Assembly: GCA_041666325.1 (NCBI GenBank)
Contig: JBAYHC010000003.1
Span: 159,102-223,101, forward strand
Direction of reading: 5' to 3'
Origin: Patescibacteria group bacterium
GTDB taxonomy: Bacteria; Patescibacteriota; UBA1384; XYA2-FULL-43-10; 1-14-0-10-43-13
DNA: 64,000 bases
Notes under the pieces: model-generated
The model's input: the letters and a program-made list of their open reading frames with translations, nothing else
The model's database searches: none
What the model was told of the DNA's origin: nothing
Shown: positions 3,243 through 48,586 of the stretch, in pieces
Layout: each line of letters opens with the position of its first letter
How positions within the stretch are numbered: the first letter of the stretch is position 1
Program-made: the position numbers and the translations under genes

Positions 3243-3608
3243 ATGCCTAAATGGATTGACGAGATTGATCCGGAAAGTTTGATAGATAAAGACATTTTTG
3301 AACTCCTAGACCTCAAAGACGCCCCGGAGGATCGCAAGCATCAAATCCTAGAAGACATGATGGAAACCATTCAAAACCGTGTGGTGGCCAGAATTTTGGA
3401 TTCACTCAAAAAAGAAGAGGTTAAGGAATTTGAAGAACTGCTCGACGAGGACGACAACGATAAGGTCGCTCAATTTCTTCAGACAAGAAACATCGACCCT
3501 GTTACATTCACAGCCGAAGAAGCCCTAAATTATAAAATTGAAATTCTCAACCTCATTGCGGCTCAAGAAGATGCGAGCGATGCCGACAATCAAGCTCAGG
3601 ACAGGTAA
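3243..3608 (+). CDS. small acidic helical protein, module 1 partner; paralog of 5837..6160
   Basis: AGGAGGAGG RBS before the ATG. 121 aa, rich in D/E. Shares the LL(D/E)LxDxPE(D/E)RK...IQ(N/T)RV(V/T)ARI(L/F)D(S/E)L...NID...N(Y/F)K(I/A)E(I/L)L(N/S)L(I/L) pattern with ORF 5837..6160. Confidence 0.7.
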   Translation: MPKWIDEIDPESLIDKDIFELLDLKDAPEDRKHQILEDMMETIQNRVVARILDSLKKEEVKEFEELLDEDDNDKVAQFLQTRNIDPVTFTAEEALNYKIEILNLIAAQEDASDADNQAQDR

Positions 3609-3618
3609 GGGAGACAAA

Positions 3619-5685
3619 ATGTTTTTTGGAAAAAAACCGTCCGCACCAGAAGCTGCCCCGTCGCCGCCAGCTCCATCTGCTTCTGAAGAAAAACCTAAAA
3701 AAGCTCCGACCGAGAACAAGAATGCCAGCTCTCCGGAGGGAAGCCCCAAGCCCCCAGTCAAGCAAGAAGGTAAAAAAGAACCTGCTACAGAAAAGGAAAA
3801 TGAAGCTGAAAAAAAAGAAAAACGGCTTGCCTCACTGGCCGAGATTTCTGCTGAACTCGACAAACGCCAAAAAGAACGCGACGAAGCGCTCTATGGCAAT
3901 TTCCTGCCACCAAAAGTTGGTAAGTTCCTGCACGGTACCGCCGCCGGAAAATTGATCAAATCAATTGCCGCTATTGCCGCTGGCGCAACCGTCGCTACCG
4001 CCGCCACATCTATCGGCGGACTAGCCCTCCTGGCAATCGCTCCTGTACTGCACACTCAGGGCATCCGCCTTGCCGCCAGCGGCGGAATTGAAGTCATTCA
4101 GACTCTCGCCGACCTAATGCAAGGCAAAAACAGCAACCTCTACGCCGAGATGAACGCTGCTAGCGCCGATCTAGAAAAGAGCAAAGTCAAACTCGCGGAA
4201 TTAGAATTGGGCAAAGACAAAGCCGACCCCGAAGTACACCAAGCACAGTTGGCGGAAACGATCAAAGCTATCGCCGAAAAAGAAAAAACTATCATTGAAA
4301 AACATTCCAAACTTCTCACACTCGACAATAAACGAAAAATCTTTCGCAGAAAGGGCTCTTCTCTTGTAACGGCCGCATTCAGTATTCTGCATGGCGTCGC
4401 CCTTGGCACCCAAGACTTCGACAACGGTATAGTTAAATCAACCAACCTTTCTAGCCCCGACCACAAGATGGTCTGGTCCCTCTTCAAGGATAACAAATGG
4501 AATAATTTTGATTTTCTATACAACCCTTCCGACTCTGCCGGCGCTGCCATGGCAAGCGCCAAACATACTTACGACATGGCCGGACCGCTCGATTTCGGAA
4601 TTAGCGGGCAAGGACACATCGTCGGCCAGATGTCCAACTCGCACCTCATTCCAAGCTATTTTGGTTTAGCTACGGCGGCACTAGGCCTTTCCTTGGGCGC
4701 AAGATCAAATGAACAGCAAAAACCCGATTACACTCCCCCATCTTTTGCGACAGATGATACAGCGCGAAGAGCGGAACCAGAGAGCAAGGAAGCCAGAGAC
4801 ATAACGATCGAAAGCAGTGCATCCGTACGAGAAGGAGATCTAAAAAAGAAGCTGGGGGATCTCGCAAAAGAAAAAGAGGAAAACAAGAAAAAACTTCAAA
4901 AACTTGGCGAGGAAATTAAGGCTGCAGAAAAATCTCCGCAAACCCATGATAGCGACCGGCAGCTTCAAGCAAAAAGAAAAGAAAAAGAAAAACTGGAAAT
5001 ACGCCAGAAAGAAATCGACACCGAACTGAAGAAATATGAAAAAGTCATAGAGATTCAGAAAAAAATTGAGGCAAAGGACCAGGAGATAAAGAAAAACCAG
5101 AATGAGTGGAACGATTTGGACAGAGAAGATGGGGATAATCCTGACATAGCAGTAGAGAAAAAGGCACATGAAGACAAAGATACCGAGCTCCGAAACGAAC
5201 GAAAAGCGCTGGAGGCTGAACTTGAGGAGGAGCTGAGAAAGATAAGCAGCAAGAGTAGCAAACCGAAACCGGAGGCGGCCACCGAAACAAGCGCAGAAAA
5301 AGAAACCCCAAAGAAGCCTGATAGCGCTCCAGCCAAAAAGGCCGAAGACAAAGCGCAGGACGAAGAAGAAGAGGAGGAAGAGGAAGATGAGGAGAATCCG
5401 GAGACAGCAAGGCTCAGAAGGGTTCGCAATAATTTTACCAAACTCGCCAGGGATGAATCTCTTACTCCATCCAGTCTCTCAGACACGACCGTTCTAAGGA
5501 ACAAATTGGAGGTAGCAAAGAGTGGACCAATTGAGCGGGCTGTTCTAACCGCCAGTTACAACGAAGCCTACACTACACTTCATAAAGTTAAATTTACCGA
5601 TCACTCCCGCCAAAAAGAGTTGGTCAGGCATATCAAATCAGGCTTTATTTCTATTTTGGAAGAGATTGGCCCGGAAAAGAGTTGA
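3619..5685 (+). CDS. giant coiled-coil protein A (688 aa) with A/G-rich hydrophobic hairpin segments; paralog of 6203..9901
   Basis: ATG at 3619 with a GGGAG RBS; the track ORF 3538 start is an N-terminal over-extension in the same frame. Features: hydrophobic stretch AAIAAGATVATAATSIGGLALLAIAPVL, a second SLVTAAFSILHGVALG and a third GLATAALGLSLGA; long K/E-rich coiled coils; a poly-E run; and a C-terminal domain ARLRRVRNNFTKLARD...YNEAYTTL homologous to protein B. Confidence 0.75.
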   Translation: MFFGKKPSAPEAAPSPPAPSASEEKPKKAPTENKNASSPEGSPKPPVKQEGKKEPATEKENEAEKKEKRLASLAEISAELDKRQKERDEALYGNFLPPKVGKFLHGTAAGKLIKSIAAIAAGATVATAATSIGGLALLAIAPVLHTQGIRLAASGGIEVIQTLADLMQGKNSNLYAEMNAASADLEKSKVKLAELELGKDKADPEVHQAQLAETIKAIAEKEKTIIEKHSKLLTLDNKRKIFRRKGSSLVTAAFSILHGVALGTQDFDNGIVKSTNLSSPDHKMVWSLFKDNKWNNFDFLYNPSDSAGAAMASAKHTYDMAGPLDFGISGQGHIVGQMSNSHLIPSYFGLATAALGLSLGARSNEQQKPDYTPPSFATDDTARRAEPESKEARDITIESSASVREGDLKKKLGDLAKEKEENKKKLQKLGEEIKAAEKSPQTHDSDRQLQAKRKEKEKLEIRQKEIDTELKKYEKVIEIQKKIEAKDQEIKKNQNEWNDLDREDGDNPDIAVEKKAHEDKDTELRNERKALEAELEEELRKISSKSSKPKPEAATETSAEKETPKKPDSAPAKKAEDKAQDEEEEEEEEDEENPETARLRRVRNNFTKLARDESLTPSSLSDTTVLRNKLEVAKSGPIERAVLTASYNEAYTTLHKVKFTDHSRQKELVRHIKSGFISILEEIGPEKS

Positions 5686-9901: not shown

Positions 9902-9913
9902 CAAGACTTAACA

Positions 9914-9940
9914 AAAAATCAGGAATTTCCTGATTTTTTG
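9914..9940 (+). terminator. rho-independent terminator after giant gene B
   Basis: Hairpin AAATCAGGAATTTCCTGATTT followed by a T-run. Confidence 0.6.
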
Positions 9941-10026: not shown

Positions 10027-10956
10027 TTAGGCAGTGGCTGTAACCAGCGCCACCCTTTTAGATTTAATAAAGAAAAACCCAACTATTGTGAATGTCAGGG
10101 CCGGCGAGAGCCAGTTTGGTATGTGAAATCCGAAGCTATCAAGCAACATGATAACGCCCAAGAAAAGGATTGAGTACATAGCACCATTTTTCAAGTAAAC
10201 ATACTTCTTGATCCGCTCAATGTTACCCAAAGTAAGCTGGCGAACAACGATTGCACCAAGACCGTTTCCTATCAGGATGAGTGGAACAGACAGCGTGAAG
10301 GCAAATGCGCCCAAGACTCCATCAATCGAGAAGGTGGCATCGATTACTTCAAGGTAAAGAATCTTACTCATATCAGACAGACTGCTACTTTTGTTAAGAA
10401 GCTGCTCCTCCCCCGCTTCGGCATTCTGCTTAAAACCGTGAGTGATAAAAAAGGCTGTTGAACCCACGACTGCTCCGAACGCCATCATCGGATCACTCTG
10501 TAGTGCGTACCAAACAATACAAGCCAAGAGAACTGAGGCAACAGCATAAAACCAAATACCCCTTGAAAAGAAAAACTTCTCATGAGGCAAGCCGAAGTTC
10601 TTCGTCTCCAAAAAAAGCCAATGGAAAAACAGAAAGATTAAGAATGTTCCTCCACCAACCAAAAGAACTGGAGCTGACTTTTCGACTGCTTCCGCTACAC
10701 TTGGATCATTAGAGAAAGCGGCAGTGATAGCACCAACCGGGCCAAGCGAAGGTGTCGTAACCCAAATAATAAGCCAGGGCAAGAGTCCACGAACTAAGAA
10801 AACGGCAAAAATCATGCCCCACAGCAAGAACCAACGTCGCCCTTTTTTGCTCATCGTTCCAAGAACTTCAGCATTGATAATAGCATTGTCAATACTTGAG
10901 ATAGTCTCAAACAAACAAAGCCCGCCAATGATTACAATTGCTGACATTAAACTCAT
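10027..10956 (-). CDS. TerC/DUF475-family integral membrane protein
   Basis: Motifs ETISSIDNAII and ATFSIDGVLGAFAFT (twin TerC-like DN/D motifs), multi-TM. ATG at 10954-10956 with a GGGAGG RBS 4 nt upstream; the track ORF uses a GTG 12 nt further up. Confidence 0.7.
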   Translation of the reverse strand: MSLMSAIVIIGGLCLFETISSIDNAIINAEVLGTMSKKGRRWFLLWGMIFAVFLVRGLLPWLIIWVTTPSLGPVGAITAAFSNDPSVAEAVEKSAPVLLVGGGTFLIFLFFHWLFLETKNFGLPHEKFFFSRGIWFYAVASVLLACIVWYALQSDPMMAFGAVVGSTAFFITHGFKQNAEAGEEQLLNKSSSLSDMSKILYLEVIDATFSIDGVLGAFAFTLSVPLILIGNGLGAIVVRQLTLGNIERIKKYVYLKNGAMYSILFLGVIMLLDSFGFHIPNWLSPALTFTIVGFFFIKSKRVALVTATA

Positions 10957-11071
10957 CTGACCTCCCACAAAATTAAGTTACCTTGAAGCAGTTATTTCCT
11001 TGCTATTCGCTGACGCTTGCCGCAAACAAAAAGAGGGAAAACGCATTACTACTTTCCATATTATAACAAAT

Positions 11072-11093
11072 AAATCAGGAATCTTCCTGATTT
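11072..11093. repeat. hairpin AAATCAGGAATCTTCCTGATTT, second copy of the 9914-9940 stem
   Basis: Near-identical TCAGGAA/TTCCTGA palindrome; on the minus strand it is followed by a T-rich tract. Confidence 0.45.
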
Positions 11094-11205
11094 ATTACAA
11101 GATGTGACAACGCCCGATAGAGCTTGCCCCGATCTTGATCCGGGAGCGACAAGGCACCCGCCTGCGAAAGCTAGTGCTTTAGCACTTGCGGGCAAGTAAT
11201 ATAAG

Positions 11206-11290
11206 GTATTGACCTGGTCTAATACCGCGAGGCTTCCGGCCCTGGCGATACCGAAAGCGAGACGGGCGCTCTGGGGTCAATACCTTTTAT
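11206..11290. ncRNA. candidate structured RNA element closed by a 12-bp perfect stem
   Basis: AAGGTATTGACC (11206-11217) pairs with GGTCAATACCTT (11279-11290), enclosing a GC-rich 61-nt core. Class and strand are undetermined. Confidence 0.25.
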
Positions 11291-11300
11291 TTTGGCATTA

Positions 11301-11378
11301 TGGTCGGGGAGAGAGGATTCGAACCTCCGATCTCAGGACCCCCAGCCCTGCGCATTAACCAGACTATGCTACTCCCCG
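11301..11378 (-). tRNA. tRNA-Pro (anticodon GGG) with encoded CCA
   Basis: Manual fold: acceptor CGGGGAG/CTCCCCG, D-stem GCAT/ATGC, anticodon stem CAGGG/TCCTG with loop CUGGGGG, T-arm GGAGG-TTCGAAT-CCTCT, discriminator A plus CCA. Confidence 0.8.
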
Positions 11379-11380
11379 GC

Positions 11381-11568
11381 AGAGCTTGTTTAACAACTAT
11401 TCCCGAAGGAAGAAGTGAGCAAATTTCGAGCCCCACCAAGGGGCCCCTCTGTGGGGCGAAAAACAGGAATTGTAAGGAGAGCTAGCCAAAGCTAACCTGA
11501 TGAGCAATTCGTGTTTTGCCACCGAAATTTGCCGCTTGTAACTATCAGATGCGATTGTTAAACAAGCT
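11381..11568. repeat. 188-bp element bounded by 16-bp perfect inverted repeats (AGAGCTTGTTTAACAA / TTGTTAAACAAGCTCT) with nested 10-bp inverted repeats; MITE-like or long-hairpin RNA
   Basis: Outer inverted repeat 11381-11396 / 11553-11568. Inner GCAAATTTCG / CGAAATTTGC at 11421-11430 / 11523-11532. It abuts the tRNA-Pro 5' end with only 2 bp between. Confidence 0.4.
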
Positions 11569-11842
11569 CTAACTCCGCCGAGACAAAATTGGCCGAAAAA
11601 GCCCAAGTGGGTAACCTCACGACCTGACCACGGTCAAATCAAATATTGGTCCAAGCTCCAATATATTGGAGCCAGCCCCAAGGGGACCCGAATATAAAAT
11701 GTTCGCCCAATTTTGACCTCAAGCGGAGCAGACCCATATTATCATATTTTGAGGTAATTAACAGCACGACAAGATGAAGCTCCAAACAAAGAGGTTGCAC
11801 TGCGTCTAGTCTGTAGACTCCTCGAAACATTGGGATTTCACG

Positions 11843-14170
11843 ATGTTAATTGCCATTTCTGGGCTTTTTGGTACAATGGATTCAAAGTACAAGAATGCTT
11901 TTTTCTTTAGCGCAATAAGAAGCGTGTCGATATTCAGTTTGATGGTTAAAAAACTCCTTATGTCAAAAACTGATCTTTACGTTCGACCAGCCTTCATAGC
12001 AACGAACGAAAAACTTCCAGATCGGTCCCTATTTGTTGGAAAAGTTGAACGACCCAACCTAGTTGGTGGTTTTTATTTTTATTTAATAGAAATTCTCTCC
12101 CCGCTCACACCGGCATCCAAGATAAAAAAGATTATTACCCACATATTAGAAAAGTCTGATCCTCCAGACGATCCCAATCTGCGCGAAGTTGTGTTCGAGG
12201 ATACTGTGGCGAAAATTAATGAATCACTCGAAGATCTGGCAAAAGAGGGAGAGCGAGACTGGGTCGGAAATTTTAACGCCGTCCTCGGCATAGTCTGCAA
12301 AGGGCACATTACAATATCGCAATCTGGCGGAGCCTCAGGGTACATATTTCGAAAAGGAACAATTTCAAGTATTACAGAAAAGTCCTCACCCGAGACACCT
12401 TCTTCGGCTGTCAATGTATTTTCAGAGATTACAAGTGGAACTCTCATTAACAACGATCGCCTTATTTTTGGAAGCACTGAGCTCTACAACCATCTCTCGC
12501 TAGACCGGCTACGACGCCTAAGCGAGAAAGTCCCTGCTCCGCTTGCAGCCACCGAGATAGCAAAATACCTAAAACGATCGAAGGTATTGATGGCAAATGC
12601 GGTCATAATTGAAGTTTGCGACCGAGAAGCAATCGAAAATGAAACGCTAGAAGCACAGCAAGAAGTAATCTATCTCGACGAACCAGGGATAGACCTCATT
12701 TCAGTAGTCAAGAAAAACTTATATCCCCTGTCACAAAAGGTTTTATCACACTCACGAGCAGCCGGAAGCGTCCTGGCTAAAAAGAGTAATGTCGTTCTCA
12801 AAAAATCCAAGGAAAACTGGCGAAGCAATTATGCTCCCCTAACCCAAAAAATACTGGACCACGGCAAATCCCAACTAGGAAACACACTGAATAATCTCAG
12901 CAAATCAGCAAAACCGGCTCTAGGCGGGACCCTGCAGAAAATAAAGCAGGACAAGGTGTACAAAAAAGCCACAATAAAAATTATACCGTACACGCAGAGA
13001 ACAAAAGACAGAGCCAATGGTACCACGAAAATAATTATCAGCCTTACCCAACGACTATTGCTTCGCGAAAACCGCAAGTACCTATACCTTGCCCTTATCC
13101 TAAGCTTCCTTTTCTTCGGCTATGTTAAGATACGAGCGAACAACCAGGATCTGGTCAAGGTAAATGAGGAAAAAAGTATAGTTTCTTCGTTTGATGAAGC
13201 ACAGAGCACCTTCGCCAAAGCCAAAGAAGATGTGGCCCTTGGTCGAGGCGATGGCGTGGACAAATATCAGCAAGCACTATCACTGGCTCAAAATGCCCTT
13301 AAATCAGATGTATCAAAGAACGAATCCGACAACTTGATTAAAGAAATTCAGAACTCCATCGATGTAGCGACAAAAACAACGCGACTCGCAAACACATCTG
13401 CACTCTTCAAGCTTGCGCCAGATATTCAACAGATTGCTCTTGTTGGTACAGAAATTTACGGGGCTGACTCGGAGGGAAAAATATTTGTTGCAGACACAAG
13501 AGACAAAGATGTCAGGCTTATTGCGTCAATTGGGAGGGACAACGGATCAGTAATTGATGCGACTTATGTCGAGTCCTCAAATAAAATCGTTTTTTACACC
13601 GACCAGAAAAAGGTTCTTGCACTGAATCCCACAACAAAAACAGTCGAAAATATCGCAATTGTAGAAAACCCTAACGAATGGGAAGATACTATATCGATTT
13701 CCAGTTATGTATCAAATATCTATCTCCTGGATTCAAGCAAAGGAACCGTCTGGAAACACCTAGCCAGAGATGGCGGATATTCAAAGGGAAGCAACTATGC
13801 CGATAGCAAAAAAGTTAGTCTCGCTGATGCCATAGATATTGCAGTCGACGGTGACATTTTTGCACTAAAAAAAGACTCAACCCTAGTTAAATTTATCAAG
13901 GGATCATATGATCCAACGTTTTCGCTCAAAAACATTCCGAAGCCGCACCAAAAAATTGAGGAGCCCGCAGAATTACACACCGATGCCGATTCCTCGAGTA
14001 TATTTATTCTCGACAAGAAGTTAAATAGAATCCTTCGCTTTGACAAGAGCGGTGAGTTCACAAACCAATATATACTCGACGGAATAGCAACAGAGCACTT
14101 TGTTGTTAACCCTCGCCTGCAAAAAATATGGTCGCTCTCCGATGGACAGATATTTGAAATAAATCTCTAG
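11843..14170 (+). CDS. membrane signalling-type protein: N-terminal degenerate PP2C-like domain, one TM helix, extracytoplasmic coiled coil and beta-propeller-like C-terminal repeats
   Basis: PP2C-like motifs ISQSGGASGYIFRKG (cf. VANVGDSRAYL) and NDRLIFGSTELYNHLS (cf. DDFLILASDGLWD), with a metal-binding Asp apparently replaced. TM segment YLYLALILSFLFFGYV. C-terminal segments KIFVADTRD / NIYLLDSSKG / SIFILDKKLNRILRFD read as propeller blades. No SD found for any candidate start, so the start is uncertain. Confidence 0.5.
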   Translation: MLIAISGLFGTMDSKYKNAFFFSAIRSVSIFSLMVKKLLMSKTDLYVRPAFIATNEKLPDRSLFVGKVERPNLVGGFYFYLIEILSPLTPASKIKKIITHILEKSDPPDDPNLREVVFEDTVAKINESLEDLAKEGERDWVGNFNAVLGIVCKGHITISQSGGASGYIFRKGTISSITEKSSPETPSSAVNVFSEITSGTLINNDRLIFGSTELYNHLSLDRLRRLSEKVPAPLAATEIAKYLKRSKVLMANAVIIEVCDREAIENETLEAQQEVIYLDEPGIDLISVVKKNLYPLSQKVLSHSRAAGSVLAKKSNVVLKKSKENWRSNYAPLTQKILDHGKSQLGNTLNNLSKSAKPALGGTLQKIKQDKVYKKATIKIIPYTQRTKDRANGTTKIIISLTQRLLLRENRKYLYLALILSFLFFGYVKIRANNQDLVKVNEEKSIVSSFDEAQSTFAKAKEDVALGRGDGVDKYQQALSLAQNALKSDVSKNESDNLIKEIQNSIDVATKTTRLANTSALFKLAPDIQQIALVGTEIYGADSEGKIFVADTRDKDVRLIASIGRDNGSVIDATYVESSNKIVFYTDQKKVLALNPTTKTVENIAIVENPNEWEDTISISSYVSNIYLLDSSKGTVWKHLARDGGYSKGSNYADSKKVSLADAIDIAVDGDIFALKKDSTLVKFIKGSYDPTFSLKNIPKPHQKIEEPAELHTDADSSSIFILDKKLNRILRFDKSGEFTNQYILDGIATEHFVVNPRLQKIWSLSDGQIFEINL

Positions 14171-45188: not shown

Positions 45189-45206
45189 TATAAAAAAATG
45201 GCTTTG

Positions 45207-45324
<118 letters not shown>

Positions 45325-45539
45325 CAAAACCATTTTATCAATACTGAATAGTAAATATCTTTTCCAGATGAGGTGCCCCGACATTGGAGCACCGATATCT
45401 GAAAAAGCTGAGCTAGATCTCAAGCGACAGCCAAGCCCCACATACCCGACAAAGTCAGGTATCGAGGTAAAGCCACCGCTAAGTATCATATGCGCTCAAA
45501 AGAATAGGATAAATCCAAGAATTGCTCGTCAAAAATTGA

Positions 45540-48462
<2,923 letters not shown>

Positions 48463-48483
48463 ATATTCTCTAGAGGTCAACGC

Positions 48484-48586
48484 CATTGCATAGCACTGAA
48501 AACCGCAAAGCGACAAAGACCCAAAACCGAAAATTTCGATTTTGGTATTTTGGGGTTTTTGGGATCCTCGGTGCTATGCATTGGGC
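48484..48586. other. about 100-nt hairpin in the 23S 5' leader (14-bp perfect closing stem CCATTGCATAGCAC / GTGCTATGCATTGG)
   Basis: Inverted repeat read directly from the sequence; the interior is itself near-palindromic (CCAAAACCGAAAATTTCGATTTTGG). Confidence 0.5.

Follow-up and report, generated by a model that had tools for sequence, protein, structure and literature searches.

The question raised by this locus is what kind of element occupies the 5' leader of a proline tRNA gene in a Patescibacteria genome, and whether it is a mobile insert or an RNA gene in its own right. The window (the whole stretch of DNA analysed, 64,000 nt of one contig of a Patescibacteria group bacterium) carries at this point a palindromic, non-coding sequence, designated E, which an earlier note made from the sequence alone had read as either a MITE (miniature inverted-repeat transposable element) or a 6S-like long-hairpin RNA. 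The coordinates of E, its parts and its neighbours are collected in Table 1. The window minus strand, which is the strand of tRNA-Pro and of the adjacent ncRNA X, is referred to as the a strand of E.

Table 1. Features of the E locus; positions are those of the window unless a related locus is named.
Feature	Position	Strand	Basis
Element E, palindromic, non-coding, 190 bp	11381-11570	-	inverted repeats, fold z, homologues, consensus hairpin of 60 pairs
E 5' terminal inverted-repeat arm, a strand, AGAGCTTGTTTAACAA	11555-11570	-	inverted-repeat search
E 3' terminal inverted-repeat arm, a strand, TTGTTAAACAAGCTCT	11381-11396	-	inverted-repeat search, fold
E inner helix (GCAAATTTCG / CGAAATTTGC), with the rod's distal part	11419-11532	-	helix 2 of the consensus structure
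E apical hairpin and 7x7 internal loop	11474-11503	-	alignment columns 70-99
Extra hairpin inside E, window-specific, GCCCCACAGAGGGGCCCCTTGGTGGGGC on the a strand	11430-11457	-	26-column gap in the L084/L086 copies
tRNA-Pro, anticodon GGG, directly downstream of E	11301-11378	-	ARAGORN; Rfam tRNA, 62.1 bits
ncRNA X, structured, unannotated, directly upstream of E	11573-11731	-	conserved in relatives, 34 pairs
Divergent gene, 736 aa, no Pfam match	11960-14170	+	homologues, N-terminal alignment
Perfect 13-bp hairpin followed by a T-rich tail	11069-11096	-	inverted-repeat search; terminator scan made no call
X homologue in L084	3445-3673	-	
X homologue in L086	3563-3731	-	
X homologue in L088	2140-2308	-	
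X homologue in L089	294-480	-	
X homologue in L090	251-436	-	
X homologue in L091	3625-3812	-	
X homologue in L092	3721-3852	-	
X homologue in L093	576-709	-	

Extent, fold and setting of the element

The nested inverted repeats that had been pointed out in this region are real, with the end of the element at 11570 (not 11568) and its length 190 bp (not 188 bp). The perfect 16-bp terminal repeats were found, as were the inner 10-bp repeats (11419-11428 and 11523-11532) and, between the latter, a GC-rich palindrome GCCCCACCAAGGGG/CCCCTCTGTGGGGC; a similar stretch, CCAAGGGG(A/G)CCC, is also present outside E, at 11678-11689. Perfect 16-bp inverted repeats within 400 nt of each other occurred in none of 30 simulated windows of the same dinucleotide content, and the real window has only three such loci; chance is excluded as the origin of the E repeat. 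The minimum free energy of the fold is -81.1 kcal/mol for either strand, with z scores of -7.2 (minus) and -8.1 (plus), and none of 200 shuffled sequences folds as well. The proposed rod-like shape holds for most of the element, the window copy adding one side hairpin (11430-11457) that is missing in homologues. At the tip of the rod lies the apical hairpin (11481-11496, GGTTAGC-TTTG-GCTAGC) above a 7x7 internal loop whose two sides, TC(A/G)TCA(G/A) and (T/C)CTCCT(T/C), are conserved in sequence, while at its base the closing helix stops 1-2 nt short of position +1 of the tRNA.

E was correctly placed by the earlier note 2 nt upstream of the 5' end of the tRNA-Pro gene (11378, minus strand). 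The accompanying argument, that this is a classic integration hotspot, fails because integrases that target tRNA genes use their 3' ends, whereas E sits in the 5' leader. The surrounding intergenic region is about 1 kb long and separates a DUF475 gene from a divergently oriented gene whose product has no Pfam match. The DUF475/TerC protein (10027-10956, minus) shares 70-77% identity with proteins of many Patescibacteria MAGs. For the divergent gene, the true start is probably the ATG at 11960 (MSKTDLY...) rather than 11843, since homologues are 711-740 aa long and their N-termini align there; the mechanically called ORF (11843-14170, 775 aa) is overlong by about 39 codons. A promoter-like site, TTGCCA-16-TACAAT (11850-11877), lies ahead of this gene. 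A scan of the minus strand between X and the tRNA found neither a promoter nor a terminator, and E fills the gap between them, so that a primary transcript X-E-tRNA-Pro is likely, running on through 11097-11300 (fold z = -3.1) and with its probable end at the hairpin at 11069-11096.

Several other features of the window were recorded. X, E, tRNA-Pro and a further palindrome follow each other within a dense non-coding locus of about 870 bp. The further palindrome directly follows the 3' end of tRNA-Pro (11097-11300, especially 11198-11291), where a 17-nt inverted repeat of 94% identity (AATATAAGGTATTGACC / GGTCAATACCTTTTATT) encloses 60 GC-rich nt; it was found in none of the relatives. The sequence AGAGCTTG, which forms the outer 8 nt of the E arm, is present again at 11119-11126. 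Terminator-like hairpins with a common core (ATCAGGAA / TTCCTGAT) flank the DUF475 gene on both sides (9912-9940 and 11069-11096). Genes for 23S and 5S rRNA, with inverted repeats beside them, are found at 45207-48465 (minus), 48483-48584 and 45195-45336, the last range being that of the repeat around 5S. The rRNA genes are unlinked, because the 64-kb window holds 23S and 5S without a 16S gene; no tRNA accompanies them there. An inverted repeat of 21 nt encloses the 5S gene, and an imperfect one of 27 nt is found shortly upstream of where 23S begins; both are probably processing stems. Two public contigs are identical to the window at the E locus, L081 (aligned by BLASTN) and L082 (read by eye). 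The former, a Logan contig from an independent assembly (SRR6484324), is 100% identical and breaks off at 11470, within about 5 nt of the middle of E, and the contig of a relative, L085, begins 83 nt ahead of its own copy of E. Such contig ends near E may be due to a repeat, to a break in assembly related to the hairpin, or to variation among strains.

Copies of the element and the adjacent ncRNA in related genomes

Nine further loci of the same Patescibacteria lineage were reached via homologues of the divergent gene (735 aa in relatives), which share 25-43% identity with the window protein. Full-length homologues of E occur in L084 (with L085 identical over the element) and in L086, at 3827-3990 in both L084 and L086, with a length of 164 nt. 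Their arms, AGAGTCTGTCTAATAACT / AGTTATTAGACAAACTCT, form 18-bp terminal inverted repeats with one mismatch and show three compensatory changes in the partner arm relative to the window. The alignment between the window copy and these homologues is gap-poor and full-length, with 62% identity overall (73% of aligned positions), and shuffled controls gave a mean of 32% and a maximum of 56%. An nhmmer profile of the three copies scored those same copies at E-values of 1e-48 to 1e-54, values that are circular and not independent evidence, since the profile was built from them. The motif of the 3' arm was found only in E copies across the 1 Mb of loci compared.

The position of the element differs between these genomes. 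The window copy lies at the junction of X and the tRNA with its a strand on the minus strand, while the copies of L084, L085, L086 and L091 lie immediately 5' of the ribosome binding site (RBS) of the 735-aa gene with the a strand on the plus strand; relative to this gene, the L084, L085 and L086 copies are oppositely oriented to that of the window. In the L084 type, E is downstream of a promoter-like TTGCAT-18-TAAAAT (read by eye; the promoter scan made no call), and the copies of relatives are placed within a putative 5' UTR of the 735-aa gene. L091 carries at the same spot a 74-nt, internally deleted derivative with arms of the window type. In L087, with a protein 71% identical to the one in L084, this promoter-like motif and the RBS are both present and a precise empty site lies between them: CAGGAGTTA is joined directly to GGTAAATTATG, where L084 reads CAGGAGTTA, 164 nt of element and then AAGGTAAATTATG. 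E is missing at this locus in six of the ten related genomes (L087, L088, L089, L090, L092 and L093), and a weak covariance-model match in the last of these (L093:3144-3302) was rejected as low-complexity repeats. Its distribution on the protein tree is patchy. The L084 and L091 copies may go back to one ancient insertion, in which case the documented E sites that are independent number only two.

Other parts of the intergenic region have also been rearranged. With L086 (3440-3515) and the window (11301-11378) as the reference for its orientation, the tRNA-Pro(GGG) gene points the other way with respect to X and the 735-aa gene in L084 (3336-3411), L089 (1-56) and L092 (2181-2253), and in L092 it is also farther off. 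Small rearrangements are concentrated in this region, and every RNA module comes through them whole. A large serine recombinase gene of L088 (431-2021) has its end within the 3' end of tRNA-Pro or right up to it, and the same conserved sequence is found beside the tRNA in L089 (1-140), which suggests an integrative element at tRNA-Pro. L087 (1-110) has the final part of an rve-type transposase gene a short way upstream of the promoter of the 735-aa gene.

ncRNA X is present in all nine of the related loci, always divergent from the 735-aa gene, and ranges from 130 to 230 nt. Compensatory changes affect 14 of its 34 pairs. The closing helix is long (GGUUCCGUCGG...CGGCGGAACC); a hairpin loop (ACCGUGGU) and the stretches CCACCCACUU and GACCAAUUU are invariant, and the hairpins in the middle are variable. 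Pairing of the GUGG in the loop with CCAC could also be formed. A promoter-like site, TTGAAA-16-TATGAT, was seen upstream of X in L084, and terminator-like hairpins were read directly in L084, L088, L089 and L091 (the scan made no call in L084). X is usually followed by tRNA-Pro(GGG). In L086 the tRNA comes after X, both being on one strand and no hairpin intervening, and it is exactly this gap that E fills in the window; the window copy takes the place of the X terminator or of the short spacer seen in relatives. X had no match in Rfam and is a candidate for a new Patescibacteria ncRNA; lacking an Rfam family, it is maybe of more interest than E itself.

Extra palindromes were observed within and around X. 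In L084 one of the variable hairpins contains an additional palindrome of about 72 nt (3555-3626, minus) with an 18-bp perfect stem (CCCTCACCCTTCAGAGAC...GTCTCTGAAGGGTGAGGG), which is missing in L086; the proteins next to it in these two genomes are 89% identical. A further insert of 57 nt, with a hairpin in it, separates the two promoters of L084. In this lineage small palindromes appear to be still in the course of being inserted or expanded. L090 has another, unrelated palindromic insert (AATAACCAATAATCAAGTTACAA...TTGTAACTTGGTTATT; 455-585, minus), placed between the X promoter and that of the 735-aa gene.

Copy number, possible mobility and known palindromic elements

The reading to which we give an about even chance is that E is a small, non-coding palindromic insert of the MITE, ERIC or Correia kind, which has been tolerated or exapted through its ability to fold upon itself. 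As in MITEs, its ends are terminal inverted repeats (16 bp and perfect in the window; 18 bp with one mismatch in L084 and L086), it is small (164-190 bp) and non-coding, the longest ORF across it not being conserved, and it is seen at differing sites and as filled and empty versions of one site (window, L084-L086, L091 and L087). The MITE reading of the earlier note gains from the second site and orientation, the precise empty site and the deleted derivative; the expected target-site duplication is absent at the window copy, where the flanks are TTA and TGC. If GAG...CTC is taken as the ends, TAA stands on both sides of the copies in L084-L086 and L091, and the empty site in L087 is 1 nt short of the sequence that this model predicts.

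Searches for further copies gave the following picture. The window was searched with the arms (exact and with 3 mismatches), with nhmmer (single sequence and three-sequence profile) and with a covariance model with filters off, and contains a single copy. Relatives have one copy per 10-kb locus. A covariance-model search of 983 kb of other Patescibacteria MAG loci (default filters) returned only generic hairpins, and among 80 Patescibacteria loci selected by synteny of the DUF475 gene none has E and none has X. The exact pattern of the inverted-repeat pair gave no matches in viral contigs, and one unrelated, AT-rich chance match with an intron-like structure (L083) in metagenome contigs; this last scan is uninformative about the source genome, because the source contig itself was not returned. 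BLASTN against plasmids and phages gave no match. Single-arm near-matches in L007 and L009 were rejected as chance, since no partner arm is present. No cognate transposase, IS-like partner or second arm was found in the window and the 1 Mb of loci. The E family is so far seen only in one Patescibacteria lineage.

The closest likenesses are with ERIC (Enterobacteria), Correia/NEMIS (Neisseria), RUP/BOX (pneumococcus) and QMITE (Coxiella) sequences, which are also non-coding, 100-200 bp long and bounded by terminal inverted repeats. Elements of the ERIC/Correia kind lie in transcribed intergenic DNA and form a long, stable stem-loop in the transcript, as E probably would, and they resemble E further in having a patchy presence with internally deleted variants. 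E differs from them in being a single copy in 64 kb, in having no target duplication in the window and no identified partner insertion sequence, in its Patescibacteria host, and in a conservation between two relatives that goes far beyond that of synonymous sites. According to a review of MITEs, target duplications fade with age, prokaryotic copy number can be as low as 1-22, the transcripts form stable stem-loops, and RNase III cuts the inverted-repeat stems of Correia elements (PMC10969869). The literature searched contained no report of MITE-like repeats or of 6S RNA in Patescibacteria, and the word "Patescibacteria" does not occur in a MITE census (PMC11602168).

The form of the ends provides a lead, and only a lead, to a possible family. 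Elements of the IS1031 group have GAG at their ends and make a 3-bp duplication (TNA). MITEs of the IS5 family (IS1031/IS427 type) would resemble E in the ends, where these are read as GAG...CTC, and in the 3-bp TAA flanks seen in L084-L086 and L091. No IS5-type transposase or matching IS ends were seen in the window and the related loci, and the flanks of E in the window are TTA/TGC.

Conservation of the fold and alternative readings

A consensus fold was computed with RNAalifold from the three distinct full-length copies. It is a single rod of 60 pairs in four helices, with the 7x7 internal loop and a 6-bp apical hairpin, and 93.9% of the alignment cells are paired. Nine of the 60 pairs are changed on both sides, a number reached by none of 500 shuffles, and slid controls gave 0-3. 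Between L084 and L086, E is 93.3% identical without gaps, compared with 75-89% for genes, 57-76% at third codon positions and 46-92% for other intergenic sequence. Since third codon positions have diverged so much further than E, the element is, as judged from this comparison, under purifying selection in these two genomes and not decaying junk. E has no conserved reading frame, its homologues carrying stop codons. A short peptide encoded on the b strand (an SD-like AAGGAG with an ORF of 13-14 codons) was rejected, since most of the differences that L084 and L086 show in it are non-synonymous and its stop codon shifts. The conservation extends over the whole length, including the internal loops, and at a level well above the neutral rate; it exceeds the needs of transposition alone and fits a functional RNA equally well.

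This strong conservation leaves room for E as a dedicated module of structured RNA that serves its own function, such as binding a protein or regulation, and is possibly 6S-like, released from its host transcripts and relocated by local rearrangement rather than transposition; we consider this rather unlikely. It would account for the conserved fold and for the compensatory changes, which occur in all four helices, and for the sequences of the loop and apical hairpin being conserved although the orthologous protein is only 42% identical. The high identity between the L084 and L086 copies points the same way, and in both settings it is the a strand that is putatively transcribed. In the a strand G-U cells outnumber A-C cells by 14 to 8, which would favour the module but is not significant. 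Both strands of E fold equally well, which tells against it. That other intergenic modules such as tRNA-Pro flip orientation too would agree with local rearrangement. Against a dedicated module stand the lack of E at this locus in most of the related genomes, including the precise empty site in one with a protein 71% identical, its reduction to 74 nt in another, and the finding of no promoter or terminator belonging to E. A more specific form of this proposal is similarly doubtful: E would be a portable structured-RNA module specific to the lineage and maintained by selection, whose rod, 7x7 loop (UCRUCAR / YCUCCUY) and apical hairpin bind a factor or form a switch controlled by RNase III, coupling the maturation of X and tRNA-Pro in the window, and the translation of the 735-aa membrane protein in relatives.

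The resemblance to 6S RNA (SsrS) that had been proposed lies in a length of about 190 nt, a largely double-stranded form and a position probably embedded in a longer transcript. 6S RNA has a large central bubble between two long stems, whereas the largest loop of E is the 7x7 loop under the 6-bp apical hairpin. No match to E was found in an Rfam scan that included the 6S families, either at the gathering score or at E <= 10, and no 6S was found in the relatives at E <= 5; scans of the region returned only tRNA and chance matches. Unlike 6S RNA, E is dispensable at this locus (missing in six of the ten related genomes) and truncated in a seventh, and the 6S-like reading is not upheld.

We regard as improbable a second alternative, in which E is a hairpin of local origin, acting in cis in processing or as an insulator (as a site for RNase III or in place of the missing terminator of X), that was never mobile and resembles the 5'-UTR hairpin of relatives by common descent of the intergenic region. 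The window copy is found exactly where relatives have the intrinsic terminator of X or a short spacer, stems of the kind that process rRNA occur elsewhere in the window (e.g., the 21-nt inverted repeat around 5S, 45195-45336), and nearby hairpins expand and contract among close relatives, as does the 72-nt palindrome in X of L084 but not L086. Common descent would, however, require relocation and inversion across X and two promoters, while the place and orientation of X are constant in ten genomes, and the clean boundaries of the L087 empty site point to insertion or excision of a discrete unit. A role for E as a DNA switch that inverts, or as a site of recombination (an inverton, integron attC or similar), is very unlikely: perfect 16-bp inverted repeats do flank 158 bp, the window arms (GTTTAAC / GTTAAAC) match the integron attC core consensus, which is RYYYAAC / GTTRRRY, and a large serine recombinase abuts tRNA-Pro in L088, but the interior of E is itself palindromic, which does not resemble a promoter segment that inverts, L084/L086 do not share the attC-like core (they have GTTATTA), neither of the two flanking genes (the only ones scanned) has a recombinase or integrase domain, and orientation changes only along with position, never at one site.

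For a palindromic insert tolerated or exapted through its fold, the following course of events may be proposed. E would have been moved by a transposase supplied in trans, and in the window would have come to sit in the transcribed spacer between ncRNA X and tRNA-Pro(GGG), where it is most likely transcribed on the minus strand within an X-E-tRNA-Pro precursor. The two halves are predicted to form about 60 bp with each other, giving a closed rod in which the flanks meet again, so that the insert would be tolerated in the tRNA leader and, in relatives, between a promoter and an RBS; the closed fold would also be the reason that pairing is maintained, selection then preserving the fold. The long, perfect closing helix (18-bp) is a plausible substrate for RNase III, whose cleavage would free X from the pre-tRNA, and RNase P would cut 2 nt downstream of E. 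Both the co-transcription of E and its processing by RNase III are inferred from the arrangement of the locus.

Patescibacteria genomes are very small and streamlined, and MITE-like repeats are unreported in them in the literature searched. If the proposed reading is true, E would be a palindromic insert that has moved between transcripts and is now held at 93% identity where synonymous sites are at about 60%, and would represent a clean case of an insert retained or exapted for its RNA fold.
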